Shown: positions 3,949-64,000, numbered from the stretch's first letter. The stretch: 64,000 nucleotides of DNA from a candidate division TM6 bacterium GW2011_GWF2_28_16 (GCA_001029715.1 CP011212.1:259407-323406); one strand, 5' to 3'. Made by a program: numbers and translations. Notes: generated from the sequence alone by a model not told the origin.

Positions 3949-4116
3949 GAAGAATATTGTAGCACTGCAGAAGTGTGGGAACAGTACGCTGTGAGTATTG
4001 CTTAGGTTTGCTTTGTAAACTTAGTGGGATTCGCCCTCTTCGAGGACTAGTCACACACCCCTAAAGAGTGCTTGCTAGGCAAACAGAGTATTTGCTATAT
4101 CGATCTCGCTTGACGG

Positions 4117-4201
4117 CGGAGGGACAGGGATTCGAACCCTGGATAGCTTGCGCTATGGCGGTTTAGTAAACCGCTGCACTAGGCCACTATGCGATCCCTC
4201 C
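4117..4201 (-). tRNA. type-II (long variable arm) Ser-like tRNA with apparent anticodon ACU; CCA not encoded (CCG)
   Basis: The reverse complement folds as a cloverleaf. Acceptor GGAGGGA/TCCCTCC, 3-bp D stem with GG in the loop, anticodon stem GCGGT/ACCGC with loop TTACTAA, variable hairpin ATAGC-GCAA-GCTAT, T arm CAGGG-TTCGAAT-CCCTG, discriminator G. The D-arm is shared with the two other Ser tRNAs in this window. Confidence 0.65.
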
Positions 4202-6563: not shown

Positions 6564-6938
6564 TTATACAGGCGATTCGGTCATCGCATGGATAAAACCA
6601 ATAATAAGGCCGTTGTCTAAATCTTCACCACAGGAGATGTATCCATTTAAAAAGTCAGGAGAGATTTTACTCCACTCACTGTTTAATTCAAAATTATTTT
6701 TCTTTGCAAAATCTGGCCACTTAGCTAGGGTTTCTTGAAGGGCTGCTTCGTTTTCAAATTTCTTTCCGACGACATATTTATCAAGAAAAAGAGAAAGTAT
6801 TTTATAGGTAGGACGAGTTATTGTTAAAAAATATTTAGTAGCTGAATCTTCTAAAGCTCTTATATCTTCTGGTGAAAGACCACTACCCTGATCCTTGTTT
6901 AGAAGATCGTTTTGACAGCCTTCAATCTCTATCGGCAT
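6564..6938 (-). CDS. hypothetical small protein, paralog of 9663..10028
   Basis: Shares the FLDKxVxxKKFxNxxxLxxxLxKWPxFAxxN...E..W block and an acidic C-terminal tail with the other copy. Confidence 0.6.
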   Translation of the reverse strand: MPIEIEGCQNDLLNKDQGSGLSPEDIRALEDSATKYFLTITRPTYKILSLFLDKYVVGKKFENEAALQETLAKWPDFAKKNNFELNSEWSKISPDFLNGYISCGEDLDNGLIIGFIHAMTESPV

Positions 6939-7033
6939 AAATTATCCTTTTCGTTAAAAAATTGATAATCAATGTAATAATATATCAAACAACGTCATTG
7001 TCAATAATGAAGCGAAATAAAGGGCTTTTTTGC

Positions 7034-7666
7034 TTATACCGTATTAAAATAGCGATCACCGTAGTCACCGAGTCCTGGAACAATATATTTTTTATCATTA
7101 AGTTTTTGATCAATGCTGGCGGTAAAAATTTTTACTTTAGGAAATTCTTGATGAATGGCTTCAATTCCTTCAGGTGCAGCGAGGACGCTGGCAACGCGCA
7201 TTTCTTTTGGATTTTCTTCTGCCATTCTGCGTAATAAATGTAAAATAGAACCGCCAGTAGCTAGCATCGGGTCGGTAACAATGATGGTAGTGTTGTGATC
7301 AATCTCCGGTAGTTTCCAATAATATTCGCGGGCGACAGCTGTGCATTCATCACGTTCCAAACCGACGAAGCCGACTTTGACATTGGGTAATAAATCCATG
7401 GCTCCAAAAAGCATAGCAATGCCAGAGCGTAAAACAGGTACAACAACTATATTTTCATCTAGTGTGCACGATGTAGTTTCACAAAGAGGTGTTTCAATCT
7501 TTCCTTTTTTACAAGACAAGCTTTTAGTGGCTTCGGCAAATAATAAATAACAAATACGATCAGAGTTCTCACGGAATTCGTGTAATGATGTTTTTTTATC
7601 GCGTAGGTGACTGAGGGAATCTTGAATAATAGGATTTTTACAAACGAAAACATTTTTTAAAATCAT
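7034..7666 (-). CDS. upp: uracil phosphoribosyltransferase
   Basis: PRPP-binding IIVTDPMLATGGS and C-terminal YIVPGLGDYGDRYFNT. Confidence 0.9.
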   Translation of the reverse strand: MILKNVFVCKNPIIQDSLSHLRDKKTSLHEFRENSDRICYLLFAEATKSLSCKKGKIETPLCETTSCTLDENIVVVPVLRSGIAMLFGAMDLLPNVKVGFVGLERDECTAVAREYYWKLPEIDHNTTIIVTDPMLATGGSILHLLRRMAEENPKEMRVASVLAAPEGIEAIHQEFPKVKIFTASIDQKLNDKKYIVPGLGDYGDRYFNTV

Positions 7667-10028: not shown

Positions 10029-10174
10029 TTTTTTGTACCTTTCAAAATGTTGATGCGGAGGCACTGCACTCTTCGAGTACTAGGCAGGTACTTTGTACTT
10101 GCCGTCGGGATTTGAGAAATTCTATTTTCTATCACATAGATAATCATCTCAGTTGCACTGAATGTTTATCTATG

Positions 10175-10257
10175 CGGAGGCACTGGGATTTGAACCCAGG
10201 AACCCCGAAGGGTCAGGTTTAGCAAACCTGTGCAATTGGCCACTATGCGATGCCTCC
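10175..10257 (-). tRNA. tRNA-Ser (anticodon GCU), CCA not encoded
   Basis: Reverse-complement cloverleaf: acceptor GGAGGCA/TGCCTCC, anticodon stem CAGGT/ACCTG with loop TTGCTAA, long variable arm, T arm CTGGG-TTCAAAT-CCCAG, discriminator G. Confidence 0.85.
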
Positions 10258-16990: not shown

Positions 16991-17015
16991 ATCTTTTTAT
17001 TTTAGACCAATTTAC

Positions 17016-52197: not shown

Positions 52198-52272
52198 TCC
52201 TCGATAGCTCAATGGCAGAGCAGGAAGCTGTTAACTTCAAGGTTCTAGGTTCGAGTCCTAGTCGGGGAGCCA
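52198..52272 (+). tRNA. tRNA-Asn (anticodon GUU), CCA encoded
   Basis: TCCTCGA acceptor (like E. coli tRNA-Asn), anticodon loop CTGTTAA, T loop TTCGAGT, GCCA end. Confidence 0.9.
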
Positions 52273-53799
52273 CGTCTCACTTATCCGAACCAAGTCACGG
52301 TCAACAAGTGCTTGGAAACCATCGGTATAAGTAATATCAGCGATTTTTTTGTCTTCAACCCATATCTTCTGGGCAAACCACCTCAAGAACTGCCGTTTTT
52401 CAGGCTTTGTGAAGGCTTCATACAACTCAGGCAGGCGTTTCATAAAGGTAATGATTTTCTCAATTTTGTCTTCATCCAGATTAGCGGAAGGTCGGCTGAG
52501 CTTTTCAATCTTAGCTTCCACTGATTTAAGCTCCTCACGCAGTGGCGAGTACTTCTTCTCTAACCGCTCTTGCGGGATAACCTCAGACAGTAATTGGTCT
52601 TCTATCTTGTCCATTTTCTTTTCAATGGCTTCCTTACGTTTCTTGAGGGATTTGAGCTGCCCAAAAATGTCGGTTCCTTGATTGCTCATTAGTGACCTTA
52701 GCTCCAAACGCAGTTCATCATAAAACTGTTCATCAAATTGGAGTGAGGCAATCCACTGACCTAATTGTTCGTGGACAGCCTCCATATTGGCATAGGGCTG
52801 AGAACAATCTTGTGTATAGTTTTTTGGTCCGAGACATCGGTAGTAACGATTGATGTGTCCTGACTTCTTAATGTGTTCCTCGCCAGACATGAGAGAACCA
52901 CAAGCCTTACAAAAAGTAAGACCTGCTAAAAACCAGTTGTGCTTGCGAGAGCGGTCAGCTCCTTTGTTGTGTTTTTTCATAATTGCCTCTGCTTGTTTAA
53001 TATCACTGACGTTTACAATCTTTGGATGCTGTCCGTTTTTGTAGACTTTTCCGTCATACTTCACCCAACCGCAATAACGAACATCGGTTAGCATACGATG
53101 GATTTGACTGGAGTGTACACGCTTGCCATTTTTTGTGCGAAAACCCTCTTGATACATCATTTCTTCTAACGTTTGGACAGAGTAGTTTCCAGTTTTATAG
53201 CGTTGAAAAATCTCTTTGACAAAAGGCACTCGCTCATCATCCAAGAGCCAAGGAACATCCTTTTTGAAAGAGTTTAGATACCCCAGGACTGCTCCGCCAG
53301 GCTGGATACCTTTTTCAGCCAATGCCACCATAGTGCGTTTGGTTTTTTGACCAGTAATCTCACGCTGTAACTGGTTAGCACCAGCCATGATTAAATCAAC
53401 AAACTTACCCACTGGGTCATCACCAAAATTGGGCTGCTCTGTAGCAATGAGCAAGACATTGTGTTTTTTGAGGAACGCCTTAACAGCCAGGTGGTCTTGA
53501 GCATTACGAGCAAAGCGGTCTGTCTCTTCAAGCAGTACTGCATGAACATCAGGGTCGCTTTCACACCGCTCTAGCATCCGATTAAACTCAGGTCTGCCAG
53601 TCGTTGATTTTCCACTTTTACCGCCGTCCTTATAAACATCAATAATATGCCAGTTTCTTTCCCTGGCAAACTTTGTTAATCGGTCAATTTGGTCTTCAAA
53701 TGAGTGTCCTTCTTTGACCTGACGGTCTGTGCTGACACGAGTATAAAGCAGGCAATTTTTAATCCCGTCAAAGCTATTTTCTCCAATTTGTTGGTACAT
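52258..53799 (-). CDS. large serine recombinase (resolvase/invertase-type integrase)
   Basis: N-terminal catalytic LLYTRVSTDRQ...EDQ...GKSGKS; C-terminal zinc-ribbon and coiled-coil. Confidence 0.9.
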   Translation of the reverse strand: MYQQIGENSFDGIKNCLLYTRVSTDRQVKEGHSFEDQIDRLTKFARERNWHIIDVYKDGGKSGKSTTGRPEFNRMLERCESDPDVHAVLLEETDRFARNAQDHLAVKAFLKKHNVLLIATEQPNFGDDPVGKFVDLIMAGANQLQREITGQKTKRTMVALAEKGIQPGGAVLGYLNSFKKDVPWLLDDERVPFVKEIFQRYKTGNYSVQTLEEMMYQEGFRTKNGKRVHSSQIHRMLTDVRYCGWVKYDGKVYKNGQHPKIVNVSDIKQAEAIMKKHNKGADRSRKHNWFLAGLTFCKACGSLMSGEEHIKKSGHINRYYRCLGPKNYTQDCSQPYANMEAVHEQLGQWIASLQFDEQFYDELRLELRSLMSNQGTDIFGQLKSLKKRKEAIEKKMDKIEDQLLSEVIPQERLEKKYSPLREELKSVEAKIEKLSRPSANLDEDKIEKIITFMKRLPELYEAFTKPEKRQFLRWFAQKIWVEDKKIADITYTDGFQALVDRDLVRISETWLPD

Positions 53800-53932: not shown

Positions 53933-54241
53933 TTAATTAAAGACATTTTCCTCTGGTACACCAAAGATTTCTCTGATTACTTCAAGAGGGATAAATGGGA
54001 CAATTTCACGCCTTTTGCCCTCGGACTCAATCTTCTGTACTAGGGTGAGGTATTTCTGATATTTTTCTGGTTCAGAGAGGTCAGTGGTACTCGGTGGGTG
54101 CTCTTTAAGCCAGGTTTGAGCATTATCATAAAATTGCAACAGCGTGTCATTATCCATCGCCCGTAATCGGTTTTCGATTGAACTGGCATTTGAGCCCGTG
54201 GCTGTAACGAGTTGGTACTTCATAGCCTTATATTTCTTCAA
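53933..54241 (-). CDS. hypothetical protein (mobile element)
   Basis: 102 aa; overlaps the start of the primase gene. Confidence 0.5.
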   Translation of the reverse strand: MKKYKAMKYQLVTATGSNASSIENRLRAMDNDTLLQFYDNAQTWLKEHPPSTTDLSEPEKYQKYLTLVQKIESEGKRREIVPFIPLEVIREIFGVPEENVFN

Positions 54242-56729
54242 TGAGTGACTCTAGCGTCGGGACATCGGTAGTAGTTTGAGCTAGGCTTAATTGCTTCCCA
54301 GTAATGGGGTGATAAATAGTTGTGCCGTTCAACCAGTCAGAGTTTATTTCGTACAGCTCTTCAACCTGAGGCATAACCACCGTATGCTCAATGGGCTTGT
54401 CAGACAATTTGTAAACGGCTGCTTTTGGTCCTTTGCTTTCTACCACCACTTCGACAAACCCCTTTCGTACCGCTGGGTTAATCCAGTTACGAACTGTGTC
54501 GTCATCCCAGCCAATTTCTTTGGCGAGTAGCCTTACCGTAAACTGTCCATCCTCATTTGTTGCATTGGCTTGGATGAGTTTGGCTTTTTCTAGTAGCTCC
54601 TCAGTTTTGGGATGGATTTCATAAATGGTACGCATCAGGATTTCTTCAAACAAAACCTGAGCGACGTAATAATCAGCCAACGTTGCAACTACCGCACTCC
54701 CACCGTTGATGGTTCTAATCTCTCTTTGACTTTGATGCAGTAGCGTCACATTTTCGATGAGTGACATGAGTTTTGAGTAGTCTCGCCTGACTCTAATGGG
54801 TTTTTTGGGGAAACGGTCGCTTAGTTCTTTAGCAAACGGGATGAGCACAGCGTAGGGTCGGATGATTTTTTGTAAGTTAATGAAAGCTGGGCTTGGCTGC
54901 TTAATAATTTCTGTACCATTGTATTTGGCGTTGGTAACTTCCAAAACCCTAGAAGTCTGTTTCTCAGTTTCATCAGGAAATACTGTGAAATTGCGAGTTT
55001 CATTTTCTGGATGAACGTTAGGGCGAGTAGTAGTGGTAACAAAACCAGTTGGTCCAAAAATCTCTCGCTCCATTGTTTCAATTTCGCCTGTCTCGGGATT
55101 TTTTACCGTTGTTTGGATTTTTAACTTGCCCTCAGATTGGAGTGAGCGGATAGAGTAATCAGCTTTTTGACCACCGTGCATTTCAAAAATCAGCACTACT
55201 TTGTGAGCGAGTGCATCAGCTTCAAGATAGTAAAAACTTTGAGGTGTGGCATCAGTCAGGTCTTTGTAGGCATCAGTGGGAAAAAGTGGCAGTACCTTGG
55301 AGATAACATAGGACTTGCCCGCAGCACTGGCTCCTTTAACAATCACAGAAAGTGGGTTGTCGGTAATCCTTGAAGTTAGAGCCAAGTAGTAGAGCAAGAT
55401 ATTTCGCTCCTCGCCAATTACGCCTAATTTTCTCACCTCGTTCAGCACTTGGTGTAAAAGTAAGGGTGAGTCCAGCAGGATATTTGCCTCAGTGATTTCA
55501 TTTTGATTTAGTGGTTTTTCTGGTAGTGGTGCGGTCTTGGATGGCAAAGTGTTCAGCTCATCCACTGCAAGGCTTAATGCCATGAGACTTTGTGCAACCA
55601 TTACCTGCTCATCCTCGTTAAAATCAGTTAGTTTGGAACTAAAAACACTCCTTCTTCTATCGGAGTGAAGGTTAATATTGTCCTGGTGGATGAGTTGACC
55701 AGTTTTGTATAAAGCAAGAACGACGGTGTCTTTTTTTCTTTGCAATTTGACATGATAACTAAGTCCGTCCTTTTGAAACTCGTAATTTGAACCACCATTA
55801 TTTTTGACCACAAAACCATGTGACGTGTTGGCAACGAGTGGTGCATCAGAGCTCGCAAGCGGAACCGCTAATTTTAGCAACTCAGTAAAATCACTGGCAG
55901 ATTTTTCTAGTTTGGTGAAGTAGTCAGTTAAGTCTACTTTTTTTCCATCGGTTGATGGTAAGGTTACAATGTGGGCTTTACTCCCAAATAGGTTGGCGGT
56001 TCGTTTAGCACCTACCTCGCCAGCCTCATCGGTGTCATAGCAAATATAGATTTTTGCGATGTGCTCAAAGTGCTGCAACCACTCAGGTTTGAACGTGCCC
56101 GCTCCGCCAGTGCTAGAAACGGCTGGGAAGCCATACTGTGTGGCAATCATAGTGTCAAACTCGCCCTCGGTAATGACAACAAACTCTGTCGGTTGACTAA
56201 GAACTCTGAGATTAAAAAGCGAAGCGGTTGAGCCATGTTCGCTCCACAGCTTGCTACCTTCGTCCTTTGCGGGGTCACGACGGTGTTTGATGTTGGTCAG
56301 CGTTCCTTGTTGGTCAAAAATAGGGATGGTGATGCTGCTACCGTCCCATCCAATTTGAAATTGCTTGATGGTGTCCTGAGTAAGTCCTCTTTGAGAGCCA
56401 ATGAGGTACTCCGTTATCCTGATGGGTAACTGCTGGTGGTAAGTAAGAGCACGGGAGTCATCAAGCTTTAATTTGGGCTTGGGAGCAGGTAGATAAAGCT
56501 GTGGTTTACTCTCTAGTGGTATGTATTTATCACCGCTAATTTTCTGCGTTAGCTGACTCCAGCTCCCTTTTTCTCCGCAGTGGTGGCATAAGTAGCAACC
56601 ATCTTCTGCTTTGATGTAGAAGTGTTTTTCCTTGTCGCAAAATGGGCAAATGGTGATGAGTTCGCCGTAGAACTGTCTGTGCTCAATGTTGTGTTGATTT
56701 AAGTAGTCGGCTACATTTTCGAGTAACAT
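54228..56729 (-). CDS. primase-helicase (CHC2 zinc finger + TOPRIM + P-loop NTPase)
   Basis: CPFCDKEKHFY...CHHCGEKGS zinc finger; TOPRIM VVITEGEFDTMIA...DTDEAGE; Walker A VKGASAAGKS. Confidence 0.8.
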   Translation of the reverse strand: MLLENVADYLNQHNIEHRQFYGELITICPFCDKEKHFYIKAEDGCYLCHHCGEKGSWSQLTQKISGDKYIPLESKPQLYLPAPKPKLKLDDSRALTYHQQLPIRITEYLIGSQRGLTQDTIKQFQIGWDGSSITIPIFDQQGTLTNIKHRRDPAKDEGSKLWSEHGSTASLFNLRVLSQPTEFVVITEGEFDTMIATQYGFPAVSSTGGAGTFKPEWLQHFEHIAKIYICYDTDEAGEVGAKRTANLFGSKAHIVTLPSTDGKKVDLTDYFTKLEKSASDFTELLKLAVPLASSDAPLVANTSHGFVVKNNGGSNYEFQKDGLSYHVKLQRKKDTVVLALYKTGQLIHQDNINLHSDRRRSVFSSKLTDFNEDEQVMVAQSLMALSLAVDELNTLPSKTAPLPEKPLNQNEITEANILLDSPLLLHQVLNEVRKLGVIGEERNILLYYLALTSRITDNPLSVIVKGASAAGKSYVISKVLPLFPTDAYKDLTDATPQSFYYLEADALAHKVVLIFEMHGGQKADYSIRSLQSEGKLKIQTTVKNPETGEIETMEREIFGPTGFVTTTTRPNVHPENETRNFTVFPDETEKQTSRVLEVTNAKYNGTEIIKQPSPAFINLQKIIRPYAVLIPFAKELSDRFPKKPIRVRRDYSKLMSLIENVTLLHQSQREIRTINGGSAVVATLADYYVAQVLFEEILMRTIYEIHPKTEELLEKAKLIQANATNEDGQFTVRLLAKEIGWDDDTVRNWINPAVRKGFVEVVVESKGPKAAVYKLSDKPIEHTVVMPQVEELYEINSDWLNGTTIYHPITGKQLSLAQTTTDVPTLESLIEEI

Positions 56730-56741
56730 TTTCTTGTCCTT

Positions 56742-57023
56742 TCATCCAGTTAAATTGTCTGTTAGTAATTGATTGAGCTTTGTTGAGACTGCTTGCTCAA
56801 CAGCTTGGTTGGTTTCTGTGTTTATTGGATAGTAAATCTGTAGCTGCTGCCCATTGGGCAACTTTTTTGTGGGGTAAACACAGCGATATCCCTCGGAGTT
56901 AAGACGGGTATAAACGGCAATGCTTCCTAAGTAGAGTTTGTTGTCCAAAACACACGAAGCGAAAGCGATTAAGCCACTGTCTGCTTTTACTGGGATTATT
57001 TCCACTTCCGAGACTTGAGTCAT
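56742..57023 (-). CDS. SpoVG-like nucleic-acid-binding protein
   Basis: VEIIPVKADSGLIAFASCVLDNKLYLGSIAVY...YPINTETNQAVEQAV aligns with the SpoVG core. Confidence 0.65.
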   Translation of the reverse strand: MTQVSEVEIIPVKADSGLIAFASCVLDNKLYLGSIAVYTRLNSEGYRCVYPTKKLPNGQQLQIYYPINTETNQAVEQAVSTKLNQLLTDNLTG

Positions 57024-57244: not shown

Positions 57245-58030
57245 TTAAGTGTTGGGTAGCCTCATGGTCTTCATTAGCTGCCTAAGCTTTAGCCGTTTTG
57301 GTAGTTTAGCTAAGTGAGCTTTGAAACGATTGCGATAAAGACTGATTACAGTTTCGTCGTGGAAGGTAGTTTTGTTTGGATACTTTTCAAGGAAAAAGTC
57401 GGCGATTTCTCGGTCAGTTTTTCCATCCTTGGTTAACTCAAGGATTTCTTTTTTTATCTCCAGGTCTTTGGTTCGGCTGAGATTGGGTGTTGAAGGTAAA
57501 TCAGATAAGTAACGGTCAATGAGTGGTTTGTTTTTGTTTAGTTCAGCGACGAGCTGCTTGAAAGACATTTTTTCACTCACTGTTATGGTTAGAGAGTTGG
57601 TAGCTTTTGGTTTATGTTTCAGTTGTTTTTGAGCTTTTTTCAGTACATCATCTAGCCCAACCACTCCCGAGTACTCGATTGAAATGGGCATAGTTTCTTC
57701 ATCAATATCAGGTGGTGGTGCAGACTGAAACAAGATAATGCCAACCAGTGTCCCATGCCAGCCAATAGGGAGGTCAAACAGCCAAATTATGTCTTTTACG
57801 GCTTGGTCTATCCATGGCAGTGATTGATTAACGGCATTTGATACATCGTCTGGATTGAGCACTTTTCCTTCTTGGGAAAGTTGAACAGAGTAGCCACCTG
57901 TGGGAACGCCAAACTGTTTTCTGACCGCTGTAATTTCACCAGCTAACTCCTCACTTTCTTCAAGTAACGCTAGTGCTTGGAGTTGTTTTTTTGAGTACTT
58001 TGATTTTTCTAGTAATAGTTTGATTTTCAT
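57245..58030 (-). CDS. hypothetical protein (mobile element)
   Basis: 261 aa, no motif. Confidence 0.5.
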   Translation of the reverse strand: MKIKLLLEKSKYSKKQLQALALLEESEELAGEITAVRKQFGVPTGGYSVQLSQEGKVLNPDDVSNAVNQSLPWIDQAVKDIIWLFDLPIGWHGTLVGIILFQSAPPPDIDEETMPISIEYSGVVGLDDVLKKAQKQLKHKPKATNSLTITVSEKMSFKQLVAELNKNKPLIDRYLSDLPSTPNLSRTKDLEIKKEILELTKDGKTDREIADFFLEKYPNKTTFHDETVISLYRNRFKAHLAKLPKRLKLRQLMKTMRLPNT

Positions 58031-58119
58031 GCCACTTTTTCAGATACCTTATGATGCTATTTTACCAAACTTATCTTGAGGTGGGTAATTTGATTTGTTC
58101 TTACATATGTTTGGTTTTT

Positions 58120-58317
58120 GGGATAAAATACACCCAACGACCTAAACTCATCGTGGTTTCACAGTGAGCATGGTCGAGAAATCGGATAAACGGCAGTAAG
58201 CCCTCCATGGGCTCTACGTTTATCCGTCGTATCCCGAAAGGGGTATGGGTGTCGCAAGATACCAGCCGTGGGGGGCTTTTTGGATATCCAAGGCTCTCTA
58301 CGCAGGAAGACGTAGTT
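58120..58317 (+). promoter_or_regulatory. GC-rich structured leader (riboswitch-like) upstream of a small membrane protein gene
   Basis: Nested hairpins: GGATAAACG...CGTTTATCC encloses AGCCC-TCCAT-GGGCT, followed by a GAAA-tetraloop hairpin TATCCC-GAAA-GGGGTA. Then a G-rich stem plus T-run (GGGGGGCTTTTT), a CTACG-CAGGAAGA-CGTAG hairpin containing the SD sequence, and the ATG at 58318. Confidence 0.3.
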
Positions 58318-58623
58318 ATGAAAGAGCCGATTAAAACAGTTGCCACTATAGTAGGGTTCCTACTTTTACTTGCAATACTCCCATTGCCGTATGGCTATTA
58401 CACATTTCTGAGATTGACCGTTTTTGTGAGCAGTTTATTTTTAGCGTACCAACTGTATGAGAAGAAAAGTCACGGTCTGAGTTTAGTTCTAGCTGGACTG
58501 GCTTTACTTTTTAACCCAATCATCCCTGTTTACCTCTTAAGAGAGACTTGGCTGCCGATAGATTTAGTGAGTGCTGGTTTGCTTTTCTATGTCGGATATT
58601 ATGTCAATAAAGGAGCCAAGTGA
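58318..58623 (+). CDS. small integral membrane protein (3 TM)
   Basis: The ORF runs from MKEPIKT; the upstream in-frame extension is GC-rich leader and is unlikely to be coding. Confidence 0.5.
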   Translation: MKEPIKTVATIVGFLLLLAILPLPYGYYTFLRLTVFVSSLFLAYQLYEKKSHGLSLVLAGLALLFNPIIPVYLLRETWLPIDLVSAGLLFYVGYYVNKGAK

Positions 58624-59387
58624 AGAAACTTTTTGAGGGTCTATTTACCTTGTTTCTCAGCGTCATAGGCATACTTAACTTTTCCTCTGGCATAATTGCT
58701 GCCATTTGGCTTATCGCTGTTGGCGGTTGGCAATTTGTTCTATTTGGTTTCATTTTAGGGATAGCAATGCCGTGGGTTTACTCAATCGCATCTATCCCTT
58801 CAATGCTGGTTGTGCCCTTAATCTTAAAGTTTGCCGAAAAAGGCAACCAACTTTTGATGTCAGTATTTGGGTTCATAGCTTCCTTGTATAACAACTTTTT
58901 GCTGGCACTCTGGGTATCATTTGTTTTTGGGTTGATGATACAGGTTGACTATAACCCAATAGCCATGTGGTTTTGGGGATTTGCCACCGTCATGGGACCG
59001 ATTAGTTACATGGCTAGTAAAGAAGACAGGGGCTCACTGGGTACAGTATTAGGGGCATTTTTCTGTCAGGTGGGATACATACTATTAACGGTTTCATACT
59101 ACTTTTTTGGTAGTGAGACATTGGGTTATAGCCTGCTTTGGTTGTCATTGATTGCATTTTCAGGGCTCAATATCTACCTCGGGTTTGCTGAGGGACTGTT
59201 GAGAAAAAGTGGAGCAGGTTCCACAAGCGTCCAGCCATTGGAAGAAGAAAATATCGAAGAGGCTGACATCGTGACACCAATGGAAGAACTGCAAGATACG
59301 GGTAAAAAATATTGCTCTAATTGTGGAGAACAAATTAACAAGTCAAGCAATTTTTGCACAAGTTGTGGAACTGCACTGAAAGGATAA
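58620..59387 (+). CDS. polytopic membrane protein with C-terminal zinc-ribbon
   Basis: 6 TM; acidic linker; C-terminal CSNCGEQIx8CTSCGTAL (Cx2C...Cx2C). Confidence 0.6.
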   Translation: MKKLFEGLFTLFLSVIGILNFSSGIIAAIWLIAVGGWQFVLFGFILGIAMPWVYSIASIPSMLVVPLILKFAEKGNQLLMSVFGFIASLYNNFLLALWVSFVFGLMIQVDYNPIAMWFWGFATVMGPISYMASKEDRGSLGTVLGAFFCQVGYILLTVSYYFFGSETLGYSLLWLSLIAFSGLNIYLGFAEGLLRKSGAGSTSVQPLEEENIEEADIVTPMEELQDTGKKYCSNCGEQINKSSNFCTSCGTALKG

Positions 59388-59390
59388 TGT

Positions 59391-59690
59391 ATGTTTTGTG
59401 GTAATTGTGGAGCCAAGATTGATGAAAAAACTAGGTTTTGTCCCGAGTGTGGGACAGAAGTTAAAAATGTTGGCAGGGATGCTAACGGCAAGAAAGACCA
59501 AGATATTGCTAGCGAACACGGTATTAAAAACCTTGATGAAAGACTGCAAAGACTTGAAAAATTAGGTGTAAATCACCCCAAGCTTATTAATCGTGCTTTT
59601 ACAGTGTGGGGTTATTACATACTCGCTCAAATAATAGTGGCGGGAGTGGTACTACTCCTTGCCTTAGTTTTTGGGCTTTTCTCTCAATAA
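59391..59690 (+). CDS. zinc-ribbon protein with C-terminal TM anchor
   Basis: N-terminal FCGNCGAKIx8FCPECGTEV; C-terminal hydrophobic helix. Confidence 0.6.
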   Translation: MFCGNCGAKIDEKTRFCPECGTEVKNVGRDANGKKDQDIASEHGIKNLDERLQRLEKLGVNHPKLINRAFTVWGYYILAQIIVAGVVLLLALVFGLFSQ

Positions 59691-59699
59691 AGGGTAAAT

Positions 59700-60833
59700 A
59701 TGTTCTGTACTCACTGTGGCTCTCACCTACGACAAAATGCTAAGTTCTGCGAAAAATGCGGCTCCACTGTGTCGAAGCCAAAAGCCAACAGTCAAAAAGT
59801 TGACAAGTCTCAGTCGAAAATAAAATGGCTAGTCGGTTTGGTAGTACTTGCAGTTGTTGGAGTTTCGTTTTCTCGTTTTTTCCTAGGCGGTAACTCTGTG
59901 ACTGGTTACTCACAAGATGAAGCAGGATTTAAGAAAGCTATTGACAGACAATACCAATTGCTTGAGTCTGGCACGGAAGCAGATGTACAACAGATTTACC
60001 AAGATTTTCTCGACCCAAAAGCTAAAGTCATGTCAGAAGAAGAGTACTTAAAGGGGTTCAAAGAGTATTGGGGTGACAAATATCAAAAAGTTATCATGCA
60101 TAGCTATAAAGCTGATGGAGCTAATGCTTACGCTGACAGAACTATCCGTGTGTGTACTGATGAGAACTGTCAAAACGTTGAGTCAATTAGCCGTGCCTTT
60201 AAGAAGTATTACTACGAAAATGGGCGATGGCTGATGAAGGGTGAAGACTTCTATTGCCCTAGAACTACCAACTATGAAATGGAGCCAGAGTTTTCTCGAG
60301 CTCTAAGTCTGATTGAGCAGCGGGCGACAGAAGCAGACACAGACTCTGCGGAGACATTTAAGACTTACCTAGAAGTAATCCACTGTCTGCAAATCCGATA
60401 TGCCCCTGCCGATGCTGACATGAACCAGGCAGAGGGTGTGTTTCACTTTATCCCTGGTCAAAGTGCCGAAACACTATCAATCGTCGTTTCACCTCGATAT
60501 AAGTCAAAAGATGACATCCTAACAGCCACGCTCATTATGCATGAGCTTACCCATGCCGTGAACTACGTTTCTGGTCTTTACGATGGAAAACATACCGATT
60601 GTTACCTAGACGAAGCACAAGCCTTTAGTAATCAAAATTGGTTTTTAACTGTACTTAATAATGAAGAAAAGCAGTCACTACTGGCTCGGATGAGAGTCGG
60701 TGGCTCTCCCGAACTGGTAGGTATTGCTAACGTACTGCAAACCGTTCCTCGCATGAAAGGAGCTACTTATGAGGAACAAGCTCTGAACTTTGTTAAAGCT
60801 AATCCGTTTTATCAAAAACAGTGCGGTACATAA
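59700..60833 (+). CDS. zinc-ribbon / TM / extracytoplasmic zincin-like (HExxH) domain protein
   Basis: N-terminal FCTHCGSHLx8FCEKCGSTV; one TM; IMHELTHAVNY HExxH with downstream LDEAQAF Glu. Confidence 0.6.
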   Translation: MFCTHCGSHLRQNAKFCEKCGSTVSKPKANSQKVDKSQSKIKWLVGLVVLAVVGVSFSRFFLGGNSVTGYSQDEAGFKKAIDRQYQLLESGTEADVQQIYQDFLDPKAKVMSEEEYLKGFKEYWGDKYQKVIMHSYKADGANAYADRTIRVCTDENCQNVESISRAFKKYYYENGRWLMKGEDFYCPRTTNYEMEPEFSRALSLIEQRATEADTDSAETFKTYLEVIHCLQIRYAPADADMNQAEGVFHFIPGQSAETLSIVVSPRYKSKDDILTATLIMHELTHAVNYVSGLYDGKHTDCYLDEAQAFSNQNWFLTVLNNEEKQSLLARMRVGGSPELVGIANVLQTVPRMKGATYEEQALNFVKANPFYQKQCGT

Positions 60834-61288
60834 AAAAAACTTTGGGAGTGAGTTGTTCCGATGTCCCGATGTGGTCAGAACCACAAGTTCATTAACAAGA
60901 ATCCTTTTTCTTTAGGTGGCTCCTGCCACAGGGGTAGTTATATAGTGTCCGCTACCTCTGAACATCGGTACTAGCTCTGCTGTATACCAGATGTGATAAA
61001 TAGGCTTAATGACTGTTTGGGGTTATTGAAAAGGAGCATTGTATTTTTAGGATACTACCTCTGGTGGTAAATTGCCCTACTCGAGGAAGGCGGAGTATCG
61101 TTAAACACTAAGTTTGTGGTAGATGGGTGTGTAATATTTTACACACATTGCTGTCAAAACTTTGCCAACTAATCCCAGGCAATATTATTGTTTTTAGCCT
61201 GGTTGGAAGTTTGATGTTGAACGAGTAAACGAAAGTATCTCATTTGCTTGATATGAGATAAAATATTGTAAGAAAAAGTAAAGAAAAT

Positions 61289-62851
61289 ATGGGATTTAGA
61301 TTTCGTAAATCATTTAAGATAGCTCCAGGCGTTCGGCTCAATATGAGTAAAAGTGGCTTGGGTATGAGTGCGGGTGTTCGTGGTGCTCGGGTTGGCTTTA
61401 ATAGCCGTGGGTCTTATACCAGCGTTGGTATCCCTGGAACTGGTATCCACTCAACTACTTATAGCAAAACAGGCAGAAAAGCTCGAAGCTCAGGTGGAAG
61501 AACAGCAAATCCTAGTCAGTCATCAGGTGGCGGTAAGCTACTACTTTGGTTGATTGCTATCGTCGTGGGTATTGCTCTTCCTCCATTGGGCGTAGTCATG
61601 GTGATTGGGGCAGCGATTTATTACTATCAACGGAACAAATCTCCAAAATATCAAGCAGAGCAGCGGATTAAAAAGGCTACGACGTTTTTCCAAGAACAGA
61701 AATATGCTGAGGCTGAGCCACTACTATTAGAGGCAGCCAATATTCATCCTGAAAACACGGAAACTGATTTTTTATTGGGTGGTGTTTACCATAATCAGGG
61801 TAAGTACAAAGAAGCTGCACCCTACCTAGAACGAGCTCATCAACAAGACCCGACGCATGAAGGAACTCTTGTATCACTTGCAAACTGTTATTTTAGCTTG
61901 GGTGAGTTCGACAAGGTTATACCCCTTATGCAAAACTTCCCAGGTGGTTGGGAAAATAATTTGAAAGCTTTACAACTTCTGGGCTTGAGTTTCTCCAATA
62001 AAGAGCAGCATGACTTGGCAATAGAAGTTTTCAAAAAGGCTTCGTTGACCAAAAGAAACCTTGATGATGGTTTGTTAGAGCTTCATTACAACCTGGGAAT
62101 TGTTTATGATGCTGCGGGGCAAAAAGCCAACGCACAAAAGCATTTCAAAAAAGTGTACGCCTACAACATGAACTACAAGGATGTGCTGAGTAAGATTGAT
62201 GGGGATGTGCCTAAAATCACCGATGGTGAACCGAAGCAAAACCAAGGGAAAGTTAAGGGACAAATTGGTTACTACGGGTTAGAGGACTGGTGGCTATCTG
62301 AGTTTAGTGAAGAAGAGAGGAGCCATATTGAGGAAGTTTTCCAACCTATGGGGTCTGAACCTGGTAGTAAGTCGCTAACTGAGGGTGAGTTGAGTTACTC
62401 ATCGCAGAACGCTGCTGGTTTACTTCATGCTCTCGCTGGCTGGTTCAATAAACCAGGCGACCGAGAAATTGCCAAGAAAATTATCGCTAAAGCAACTGAA
62501 CTAGCTCAAGATGGTAATGATGTTCTTGACCTTCACTTTTCGCTACAGCAAAAGATGGAGATTTATTACCGAGAACGTGAGGCTGACCCAAAAGCCATGG
62601 ATGAGGCGATTAAGGCTTGTGAGGATCAAATCAGGATAGCACCGCAGGCAGCACGACAATTTCTCAAAGAGTATCCAGGGCAACCAGTGCCTGGTCATGC
62701 AGGGTACACTCAACTAGCTATCATCCTCAAAAAACAAGATAAGCACCAAGAAGTAATCGTACTTTGTGAGAAGGCAAAAGAGCAAGGTTGGGCTGGTGAT
62801 TGGGATAAGCGGATTGCTGATGCCCAGAAGAAACAGGAGGGACAAGTATGA
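61289..62851 (+). CDS. DUF4236-type N-terminal domain / TM / TPR-repeat protein
   Basis: MGFRFRKSFKIAPGVRLNMSKSGLGMSAGVRGARVGFNSRG matches the DUF4236 pattern. One TM follows, then TPR-like repeats (HPENTETDFLLGGVYHNQGKYKEAAPYLERAHQQDP...). Confidence 0.6.
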   Translation: MGFRFRKSFKIAPGVRLNMSKSGLGMSAGVRGARVGFNSRGSYTSVGIPGTGIHSTTYSKTGRKARSSGGRTANPSQSSGGGKLLLWLIAIVVGIALPPLGVVMVIGAAIYYYQRNKSPKYQAEQRIKKATTFFQEQKYAEAEPLLLEAANIHPENTETDFLLGGVYHNQGKYKEAAPYLERAHQQDPTHEGTLVSLANCYFSLGEFDKVIPLMQNFPGGWENNLKALQLLGLSFSNKEQHDLAIEVFKKASLTKRNLDDGLLELHYNLGIVYDAAGQKANAQKHFKKVYAYNMNYKDVLSKIDGDVPKITDGEPKQNQGKVKGQIGYYGLEDWWLSEFSEEERSHIEEVFQPMGSEPGSKSLTEGELSYSSQNAAGLLHALAGWFNKPGDREIAKKIIAKATELAQDGNDVLDLHFSLQQKMEIYYREREADPKAMDEAIKACEDQIRIAPQAARQFLKEYPGQPVPGHAGYTQLAIILKKQDKHQEVIVLCEKAKEQGWAGDWDKRIADAQKKQEGQV

Positions 62852-63396
62852 GGTCAAAACAACTTATTACGTTAGTTTTATTGATTGCAGTTGTAGCTGT
62901 GATTGCTTACTTTGCTTATAGTTCAAAACAACGCAATCAGACTACGCCAACATCGGCAACACAGATGGAACAGCAGAACGCCGACTGGCAGGATGAAACA
63001 GTAAACGAAATTGGTTTAACGCTTCAACATCCTAAAGACCTGGTGTTCCGCAAGGAAATTGCCGACGATAACGGCAGGATTAGAACAGTGGGGTTTTTCC
63101 TAACAAAAGGCTCCGAAAATAGCCCTGAGTATCAAATGTACGGATTGTACCAGCAGTTTAAGGATGGAAGCCAACAAGACTTGGAACTTGCTAAGAAAGA
63201 GATGGACTCAACCACCATAAAGGAAGCAAGTATCACTGGCTACTCTGGTATTGAGGGTTTAATCATTGGTCCAAAAACCAGGTTCATTACTACTGTGATT
63301 AAAGATGGAAAACTTTTTTCGGTATCAACAATCCCACCTACAGAAGAAAATAAAGAACTGACCGAACAGATAATAGCAACCTTTGATTTTGAATAA
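62848..63396 (+). CDS. hypothetical secreted/anchored protein
   Basis: N-terminal hydrophobic helix; overlaps the previous stop (translationally coupled). Confidence 0.5.
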   Translation: MRSKQLITLVLLIAVVAVIAYFAYSSKQRNQTTPTSATQMEQQNADWQDETVNEIGLTLQHPKDLVFRKEIADDNGRIRTVGFFLTKGSENSPEYQMYGLYQQFKDGSQQDLELAKKEMDSTTIKEASITGYSGIEGLIIGPKTRFITTVIKDGKLFSVSTIPPTEENKELTEQIIATFDFE

Positions 63397-63398
63397 TT

Positions 63399-63683
63399 AT
63401 GCCCGTAATTTCATACTTATTGACTGCTTTTTTTATTGGAGGTGGGATTTATTGTATTTTCCAATATTGGAAGGTAGAGCATATTGAAAGGGAAATTAAT
63501 GTGCTTGAAACTGAATGGGATGGAGTGCCCAAGAAGTCTATGAACCCTTATGTCAATAACGACACCTTGTTGAAAATCATCGCCAAAAATAGACAGCCAA
63601 TTGAACGGAAAATATATTTGTTAAAACAGAAGAGACAATTCGTGTTGGACAAAATACCACTAATTGGTTGGTTCAAAAAGTAA
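63399..63683 (+). CDS. hypothetical small membrane protein
   Basis: One N-terminal TM; 94 aa. Confidence 0.45.
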   Translation: MPVISYLLTAFFIGGGIYCIFQYWKVEHIEREINVLETEWDGVPKKSMNPYVNNDTLLKIIAKNRQPIERKIYLLKQKRQFVLDKIPLIGWFKK

Positions 63684-63716: not shown

Positions 63717-63962
63717 TTATAGTTCACACTGATGTTGGTAGCTTGGGTTATCCGATATGAGTTGAAACAACTTACTACGAAGGTTTTTTTGCGAGCATTC
63801 ATCATCTGTAAATAATGGGCACGTCCCATCACGATTGATATCAATCATAGTTTTGAGCATAGCCACCTGGGGATGTTTATCGTCGTTCTCTTCATTCATT
63901 TTAAGCACAACAGAACTAATCTCTTCGTTACTTAGTTTGGTGTAAAAATCAATCTGTGACAC
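63717..63962 (-). CDS. hypothetical protein
   Basis: 81 aa acidic protein; weak support. Confidence 0.35.
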   Translation of the reverse strand: MSQIDFYTKLSNEEISSVVLKMNEENDDKHPQVAMLKTMIDINRDGTCPLFTDDECSQKNLRSKLFQLISDNPSYQHQCEL

Positions 63963-64000
63963 GAATGCTTCAACCTCTTTGTCTCTACAAGATAGATTGT

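Follow-up and report, generated by a model that had tools for sequence, protein, structure and literature searches.

A LOOT RNA and an orphan zincin-fold protein family in apparently exchangeable cassettes of a serine-recombinase integrative element

The subject of this analysis is a 64,000-nucleotide stretch of bacterial DNA (GCA_001029715.1, CP011212.1:259407-323406; hereafter the window) and, more specifically, seven plus-strand genes near its right end, g1 to g7, that follow a copy of the LOOT RNA. The explanation we favour, with somewhat more than even confidence, is that this region forms the rightward accessory arm of a serine-recombinase element of roughly 14-15 kb, integrated at a tRNA-Asn gene in a genome of the candidate phyla radiation (CPR), and that the arm is a mosaic whose cassettes can be exchanged independently of one another, not a seven-gene machine. 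The RNA looks like a portable leader of such cargo cassettes, and g4 belongs to a small, orphan and uncharacterised protein family for which a role as outward-facing zinc peptidase is proposed. An earlier interpretation made from the DNA alone (the sequence-only reading) had joined all seven genes into one abortive-infection or superinfection-exclusion system with zinc-ribbon sensors, a metallopeptidase effector and a TPR scaffold.

That reading placed the genes in a GC-richer integrated element, and here it is borne out. A large serine recombinase with the three domains of its class is encoded beside a tRNA-Asn gene, a primase gene follows, and the G+C content is 0.41-0.45 from 52 kb on against 0.29-0.41 (mostly about 0.35) before. 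The G+C content drops about 2.7 kb past the window end, near position 17000 of locus L002, and the element extends beyond the window. Because the recombinase open reading frame (ORF; minus strand) shares 15 nt (52258-52272) with the 3' end of the tRNA-Asn gene (plus strand), the arrangement suggests that the element would supply the tRNA 3' end after integration. One point weighs against this placement: the right attachment site attR was not found in the extended locus, either among direct and inverted repeats or when the 3' end of the tRNA-Asn gene was searched for with 3 mismatches allowed.

All seven ORFs are present and tightly packed, as had been stated. The genes g1 and g2 overlap by 4 nt, as do g5 and g6, and the spacers are 3 nt between g2 and g3, 9 nt between g3 and g4, and 2 nt between g6 and g7. 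The idea of a single packed block holds for the common direction and the close spacing, but not for the division of the genes: since 455 nt separate g4 from g5, the block falls into two tight units, g1-g4 and g5-g7. This gap has a fold z-score of -2.78 (none of 100 shuffles was as stable) and is partly conserved 5' of the g5 homolog in locus L165 (8655-9012), and for these reasons it may be a second leader that belongs to g5. It has no Rfam match.

Hydrophobic segments are found in every product (two in g1, several in g2 and one apiece in g3 to g7). Because all products are membrane-bound, the cargo would act at the envelope. The three successive zinc ribbons were also recognised correctly, and Pfam places Zn_Ribbon_1 (PF13240; E 1e-7 to 2e-8) C-terminally in g2, N-terminally in g3 and N-terminally in g4, with 31.7, 34.0 and 32.8 bits against a cut-off of 25. 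Their cysteine spacing, however, is Cx2C-x10-Cx2C and not the x8 that had been given. The g1 product is a DUF6804 protein (PF20619, 89.5 bits against a cut-off of 27). Its start is most likely at 58318 and not at 58207, since the longer ORF would overlap the RNA, the Pfam match begins at residue 43 of that ORF and the orthologs are 101-103 aa long. In g5 the predicted succession of DUF4236, a transmembrane (TM) segment and TPR repeats was found as described (PF14020: E 1.6e-23, 83.3 bits against a cut-off of 27; TPR_1: 68.1 bits), to which a C-terminal domain of about 210 aa has to be added; elsewhere this domain forms a separate ORF (locus L057; protein P0362). Relatives of g7 were not detected in the libraries searched.

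The distribution of the genes in other genomes carries the mosaic reading. The full set of seven occurs only in near-identical copies of the element (L001-L007), while L008-L010 and L120, shorter contigs that come from this element or a close relative of it, contain only part of the block. None of the diverged elements compared brings the seven genes together. The question whether the genes are syntenic in other elements is therefore answered with yes for sub-modules and with no for the whole. The genes g1-g4 are syntenic only in L018-L020, beside a different recombinase and at 49-63% identity (in L018: 49% for g4, 63% for g1 and 48-50% for g3). A third, small element (L167) combines LOOT with a 455-aa g2-like membrane protein, again with a C-terminal zinc ribbon, and a g4 homolog of 44% identity. 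In L016 a 242-aa membrane protein lies 5' of a ribbon-less g4 homolog; its homolog is the N-terminal membrane part of P0008 (locus L011), a protein in which that part and the zincin part are fused. Both the L167 arrangement and this case of split and fusion support a functional pair of a membrane partner and g4.

The remaining genes follow paths of their own. The sibling element L165 shares the core of the window element (primase 69%, SpoVG-like protein 80%, 261-aa protein p261 74%) as well as g5 (78%), and is without LOOT, g1-g4, g6 and g7. The g6 family comprises 172 clusters, the best 120 of which are 47-100% identical, and ranges over Pacebacteria, Woesebacteria, Roizmanbacteria and Gottesmanbacteria; its members lie beside recombinases or ordinary genes (L162-L164 are among these loci) and never together with g5 or g7. 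Most g4 homologs are without g1-g3, and outside the near-identical copies g5-g7 never accompany g4. Since L165 holds g5 without the other six genes, g6 travels without g5 and g7, and most g4 homologs lack g1-g3, we conclude that the seven genes are not one system.

As a side observation, the small element L167 is a 7.5-kb contig that carries a recombinase, SpoVG, LOOT, the g2-like gene and g4, and in addition a GP3_package (small-terminase-like) gene at 6842-7246 on the minus strand. This gene gives a hint that some of these elements are phage satellites.

The structured leader that had been noted in front of g1 is a full-length copy of the LOOT RNA (RF03000). It scores 86.3 bits against a gathering score of 46.4, covers model positions 1-121 of 121, and shares with the Rfam model its six helices and GNRA-type loops (GAAA, GCAA). 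LOOT is presented as a metagenome-based RNA of the Weinberg/Breaker ZWD collection (PMC7779021). In the literature on the motif we found no stated function. Further copies were sought in IMG/VR and Joint Genome Institute (JGI) metagenomes with a pattern of invariant bases and a covariance model, which yielded 71 copies. This model was built from the window copy and the Rfam-derived structure, because an alignment of five copies with MAFFT and RNAalifold recovered three helices only. With 41 pairs written on the window copy, 95.5% of the cells in the 71 copies are paired and compensatory changes occur in 38 of the 41 pairs, figures that are favoured by the fitting of the alignment to the model; none of 500 shuffles reached this level of pairing, and slid controls also stayed far below it.

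A segment 3' of the Rfam model, with the consensus GCUGGCGGGGAGCUUUGUGUUU, directly follows nearly all copies. It forms a hairpin whose 4-bp arms co-vary by eye (AGCU/AGCU, UCGC/GCGA, GCUC/GAGC, AGCC/GGCU) and which is followed by a U tract. A terminator-like signal was called in 42 of 66 copies compared to 4 upstream controls, and the window copy is one U short of the cut-off. A longer helix that encloses the U tract was also considered; its enrichment is modest (mean stem 6.6 against 5.7 in shuffles; stems of at least 8 in 35% against 11%), and it was dropped as a general feature for being only modestly above the shuffles. At the other end, a recurrent CAAyTTAATA motif is seen in many of the 71 loci between the -10-like box and the 5' boundary of LOOT (window 58079-58138), and the Rfam model may miss about 10 nt at the 5' end of the RNA.

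The genomic context of LOOT is uniform in layout and varied in content. In 56 of 59 loci the gene after the RNA runs in the same direction. The distance from the RNA to the first possible start codon has a median of about 51 nt and is mostly 15-90 nt. Upstream genes are divergent in 45 of 60 loci, and a sigma-70-like site lies within 25 nt upstream of 52 of the 71 copies. The genes that follow the RNA are heterogeneous: trypsin-like peptidases, DNA methylases, tRNA_anti-like, PG_binding, DUF6804 and TPR proteins are found there, among others, and a minority of them match defence-related PADLOC models. Of the neighbouring proteins, 93 are singletons. Serine recombinases and ParB-methylases are among the upstream genes, and about 18 loci have a recognisable serine recombinase homolog. 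LOOT also occurs in IMG/VR contigs. One predicted viral contig of 40.7 kb (IMGVR_UViG_3300025323_000435) holds two copies, L034 2421-2538 and L039 7852-7981 (both on the minus strand), which head different genes, a NucS-like protein and a type I/IIG methylase.

Because LOOT is promoter-proximal and stands 5' of co-directional but heterogeneous genes, it looks like a portable leader: a unit of promoter, leader and weak terminator that heads transcription units of mobile elements and would act in cis. Compared to the family as known so far, from metagenomes, the window copy places LOOT in a named genome on a serine-recombinase element, and the 71 copies present it as a promoter-proximal 5' leader of varied cargo with a conserved hairpin and U tract outside the model. 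Several observations weigh against this reading. The sample was drawn with a sequence pattern and is thereby biased towards one sub-type. LOOT is absent from most g4 loci, so that the two are not obligatorily linked. In L163 (5810-5926, minus strand) the RNA faces the leftward core genes, which run from a 232-aa gene to the recombinase, with a g6 homolog on the far side of the intergenic region; cargo arms are thus not the only place in which LOOT occurs.

The same L163 copy fits a different account, in which LOOT is a free-standing trans-acting small RNA (sRNA) with its own terminator and stands before genes as a side effect of how compact the elements are. Rfam types the family as 'Gene; sRNA', the hairpin and U tract directly 3' of the model could end such an RNA, and the downstream genes have no function in common. 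We regard this account as a genuine minority possibility. Against it speaks the orientation and spacing of the downstream genes, which is unlike that of independently oriented sRNA genes. The shortness of the hairpin, about 4 bp, counts against an independent terminator, and it is a point against the leader as well.

Turning to g4, relatives were recovered in 57 clusters among 5.8 billion proteins by word search and in 461 clusters among 1.84 billion representatives by profile search, all of them unannotated. The core of the family is the C-terminal 190 aa of g4. An HExxH...E motif had been seen in this protein, and the motif stands: HELTH lies at 281-285, and H281, E282, H285 and the third, downstream glutamate ligand E305 are invariant in 55 homologs, as are C186, C229, C301 and C375. 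In confident AlphaFold models (predicted local distance difference test 89.9 over the full protein, 93.2 for the domain) the two domains behind the TM segment match NTF2 and zincin folds, and the top fold match is an HExxH oxygenase domain. The protein does not belong to a curated peptidase family in Pfam or MEROPS, where only sub-threshold matches appear (Peptidase_M91 at E 0.011, Aminopep 0.0029, eCIS_core 0.14), and the family profile found no relative among PDB sequences.

Only the closest quarter of the family (12-13 of 55) has the zinc ribbon, and the rest carry an N-terminal hydrophobic anchor only. The outside location of the HExxH domain is a prediction: a lysine-rich N-side of the TM segment, signal-anchor short members and the four cysteines point outward, so that the NTF2-like and zincin domains of g4 would both be extracytoplasmic. 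From motif, fold, predicted topology and position, g4 is modelled as a putative outward-facing zinc peptidase that would act on an envelope or surface protein to the benefit of the element. An oxygenase-type or non-catalytic role is conceivable as well.

The place of the family in mobile elements is steady. In 13 of the 15 loci with enough sequence for a judgement, a large serine recombinase is encoded close to the g4 homolog, mostly on the other strand and with genes for a primase and an XRE-type regulator in between; the g4 homolog then opens the diverging arm or is its second gene. The window element has a second family member that the sequence-only reading missed, a convergent short-form paralog of 268 aa with a TM segment and a HEMTH zincin domain (30% identity, E 4e-19 to g4 residues 186-375). 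This element thus holds both long and short members. A 194-aa TM protein follows the paralog, and this pair is convergent with the block. Some g4 relatives (L023, L025, L028) come from metagenome-assembled genomes labelled Bdellovibrionales, Deltaproteobacteria UBA5329 and Oligoflexia, which may reflect either true occurrence outside the CPR or mis-binning. In L011 (11921-20190) a g4 homolog is directly followed by a Gabija-like pair (OLD-type TOPRIM AAA_15 and UvrD helicase) and a type I restriction-modification set, so here the same arm carries recognised defence cargo. The family was not found in IMG/VR viral contigs, which leaves a phage-related role of g4 without direct support and weighs against our proposal.

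Taken as a mechanism, cassette 1 would comprise the promoter-like site, LOOT at the very 5' end of the transcript, the hairpin with U tract, and g1-g4, with the first start codon about 55 nt after LOOT. The RNA would gate or condition transcription into the cargo genes. The core of the cassette would be g2, polytopic and with a cytoplasmic C-terminal zinc ribbon, together with g4, and g1 and g3 would be closer-range companions. Here g4 may cleave an envelope or surface protein for the element, for example in surface exclusion or receptor processing. Cassette 2 would consist of g5-g7 behind their own 455-nt leader, unrelated envelope proteins that were presumably acquired separately.

Of the other readings of the gene block, the seven-gene abortive-infection or superinfection-exclusion system appears very improbable. 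Co-directional packing on a mobile element, the synteny of g1-g4 in L018, the Gabija-like pair and restriction-modification system that adjoin the g4 homolog in L011, and the failure of profile searches to place any of the seven proteins in a characterised housekeeping pathway all speak for it. The sequence-only reading had also named no known defence system, and indeed g1-g7 match none of the PADLOC-DB 2.0 families at E <= 0.01. This result likewise deprives the abortive-infection model of support. Its other parts fare no better: a sensor role of the zinc ribbon is doubtful when most of the g4 family does without it, the DUF4236-TM-TPR architecture is a widespread stand-alone one in many phyla and hardly a dedicated scaffold, and scaffold and small proteins are separated from g4 by the 455-nt gap and are never inherited with it in diverged elements. 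We consider it unlikely that g1-g4 are the lysis genes of a satellite or defective prophage, with holin-like small proteins and with g4 as a membrane-tethered wall peptidase similar to signal-arrest-release enzymes. The small membrane proteins do precede a signal-anchored hydrolase-like protein, NTF2-like domains are present in wall enzymes such as PBP2a and Csd6, and the TerS-like gene in L167 and the IMG/VR copies of LOOT point in the same direction. However, the g4 family is missing from IMG/VR, g4 sits at the head of an arm by XRE regulators and not in a late region, the window element has no structural or terminase genes, and no holin family was matched apart from a weak hit of g6 (E 0.0035). 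HExxH zincins are not known as a usual type of endolysin.

It might also be argued that g2, g3 and g4 together make up a device for signalling across the membrane, of the anti-sigma or regulated-proteolysis type (RsgI-like, BlaR1-like), which couples a signal from outside to a cytoplasmic zinc-ribbon output. The architecture of cytoplasmic ribbon, TM segment and outside NTF2 domain is compatible with this, and XRE regulators are frequent neighbours. Nonetheless we judge it quite improbable: the element has no sigma factor gene, no RsgI_N or other anti-sigma Pfam domain was matched in g1-g7 or the g4 family, and about three quarters of that family have just a short tail and a TM segment in place of the ribbon. 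Moreover, a zincin domain that is predicted outside cannot cut a cytoplasmic repressor. The likeness to RsgI9 is confined to the NTF2 ectodomain of g4. The ImmA/IrrE (M78) proteases were weighed and ranked low together with the anti-sigma and lysis readings. These proteases and their XRE repressors are known from ICEBs1 and Gram-positive prophages, where the cytoplasmic ImmA cleaves the repressor, and the g4 family resembles them in that an HExxH protein and an XRE-type regulator are neighbours towards the integrase end of mobile elements. The zincin domain of g4, in contrast, follows an N-in TM anchor, has four invariant cysteines and is predicted outside the membrane; its gene is often transcribed divergently from the XRE gene, and none of the 55 family members has an M78 (PF06114-type) match.

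The mosaic of cassettes, which we prefer to these readings, can also be set against other known proteins. The gluzincins (M3 oligoendopeptidase F, M35 deuterolysin, M1 aminopeptidases) differ from g4 in that it reaches no Pfam peptidase family, has no sequence relative in the PDB and is distinguished by its four invariant cysteines, N-terminal membrane anchor and NTF2-like partner domain. Ltp, Sie2009 and T4 Imm/Sp are prophage-encoded membrane proteins or lipoproteins for superinfection exclusion. The likeness here lies in small envelope proteins by the lysogeny or regulatory switch of an integrated element; no relation in sequence or fold to the block was found, and none of these exclusion proteins is known to be a zincin. 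Residues 1-300 of g5 share the common architecture of DUF4236-TPR proteins (PF14020), which is found in Patescibacteria, Nitrospirota, Planctomycetes, Deltaproteobacteria and others, and g5 differs from these by its extra domain. Searches of the literature on DUF4236 and on serine-recombinase elements of Patescibacteria yielded nothing of relevance to function. Coordinates are collected in Table 1.

Table 1. Features of the window element, with window coordinates.
Feature	Position	Strand	Evidence or remark
tRNA-Asn	52198..52272	+	ARAGORN and Rfam; left border of integrated element
Large serine recombinase	52258..53799	-	Resolvase, Recombinase and Zn_ribbon_recom; phrog_95 integrase E 4.6e-90
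Toprim primase-type replication protein	54228..56729	-	Toprim_2; phrog_47 DNA primase E 3e-27
SpoVG-like protein	56742..57023	-	Pfam SpoVG E 4.4e-9; homologs in L011, L165, L167, L069, L082
261-aa protein (p261)	57245..58030	-	ORF; first gene of leftward arm, divergent from LOOT; weak HTH_5 match
Sigma-70-like promoter site	58100..58129	+	CTTACA-18-TAAAAT, consensus match; just 5' of LOOT
LOOT RNA (RF03000), full length	58139..58263	+	Rfam
Conserved 3' extension of LOOT	58264..58283	+	Hairpin AGCC-GUGGGG-GGCU, then U tract; terminator-like
g1, DUF6804 small membrane protein, 101 aa, 2 TM	58318..58623	+	PF20619 E 1.6e-25; 101-aa orthologs
g2, polytopic membrane protein, 255 aa	58620..59387	+	Zn_Ribbon_1 at 231-253 (C-terminal); hydrophobic segments
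g3, N-terminal zinc ribbon, linker, C-terminal TM, 99 aa	59391..59690	+	Zn_Ribbon_1; hydrophobic segment
g4, zinc ribbon (1-25), TM (39-62), NTF2-like (74-184), zincin-fold HExxH...E with 4 Cys (186-377)	59700..60833	+	
Non-coding gap, 455 nt, possible second leader (g5)	60834..61288	+	Fold z-score; partial conservation in L165
g5, DUF4236, TM, TPR and extra C-terminal domain, 520 aa	61289..62851	+	Pfam; hydrophobic segment
g6, N-terminally anchored, 182 aa	62848..63396	+	Widespread Microgenomates family
g7, N-terminal TM, 94 aa	63399..63683	+	ORF; hydrophobic segment
g4 short-form paralog, C-terminal part	63717..64000	-	BLASTP; runs off window; full ORF L002 14018-14824(-)

Another observation concerns the origin of the DNA. 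The window sequence is filed at NCBI under GCA_000993185.1 (LBVQ01000001.1) as Candidatus Pacebacteria bacterium GW2011_GWF2_38_9, a groundwater member of the CPR/Patescibacteria. Two organism labels are attached there to proteins identical to g1-g7, Candidatus Pacebacteria bacterium as well as candidate division TM6 bacterium GW2011_GWF2_28_16, and one of the two is probably wrong.

Group I introns lie near the recombinase/tRNA end of related elements, namely in L012 (3578-3861), L021 (4547-4813), L027 (6123-6363 and 6856-7071) and L038 (1017-1211). They fit a 2026 report of group I introns in tRNA-Asn and tRNA-Asp genes of Patescibacteria (PMC13011429), and related elements may target such intron-bearing tRNA genes. 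Past the window, a GC-rich intergenic stretch of 457 nt (L002 15413-15869) shows no significant fold (z -0.1 and -0.8 on the two strands) and no Rfam match. Far from the element, ARAGORN reports a tRNA-Ser with the anticodon ACT, which is unusual in bacteria, at window 4115-4201 on the minus strand, and a tRNA-Ser(GCT) lies at 10174-10257. A SAM (S-adenosylmethionine) riboswitch (RF00162) at 26-132 on the plus strand scores 46.4 bits, barely over its gathering score.

Accessory cassettes of an integrative element are a known kind of thing. Without characterised counterpart are the use of an orphan RNA as cassette leader, the exo-zincin family of CPR serine-recombinase elements and the membrane partner of this exo-zincin. 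A bolder version of our proposal, which we put forward tentatively and consider rather unlikely to hold as a whole, would make LOOT a cis control RNA, portable and riboswitch- or antiterminator-like, that mobile elements of Patescibacteria place with its own promoter before interchangeable cargo; the g2-like protein and the g4 exo-zincin would then be an undescribed envelope module, for example for surface exclusion of competing elements or phages, and a hallmark of one family of CPR serine-recombinase elements.

Summarizing, a tidy co-directional gene block need not equal a system. The CPR/Patescibacteria represent a large share of the diversity of bacteria, and hardly any work has been done on their mobile elements and regulatory RNAs. 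For the orphan LOOT RNA there is now a link to a named genome and to serine-recombinase elements, as well as a fixed promoter-proximal place before varied cargo, which gives a testable idea of its role. The g4 family, steady by the recombinase and regulator end, offers a candidate for a function that benefits the element at the surface of cell-attached organisms.

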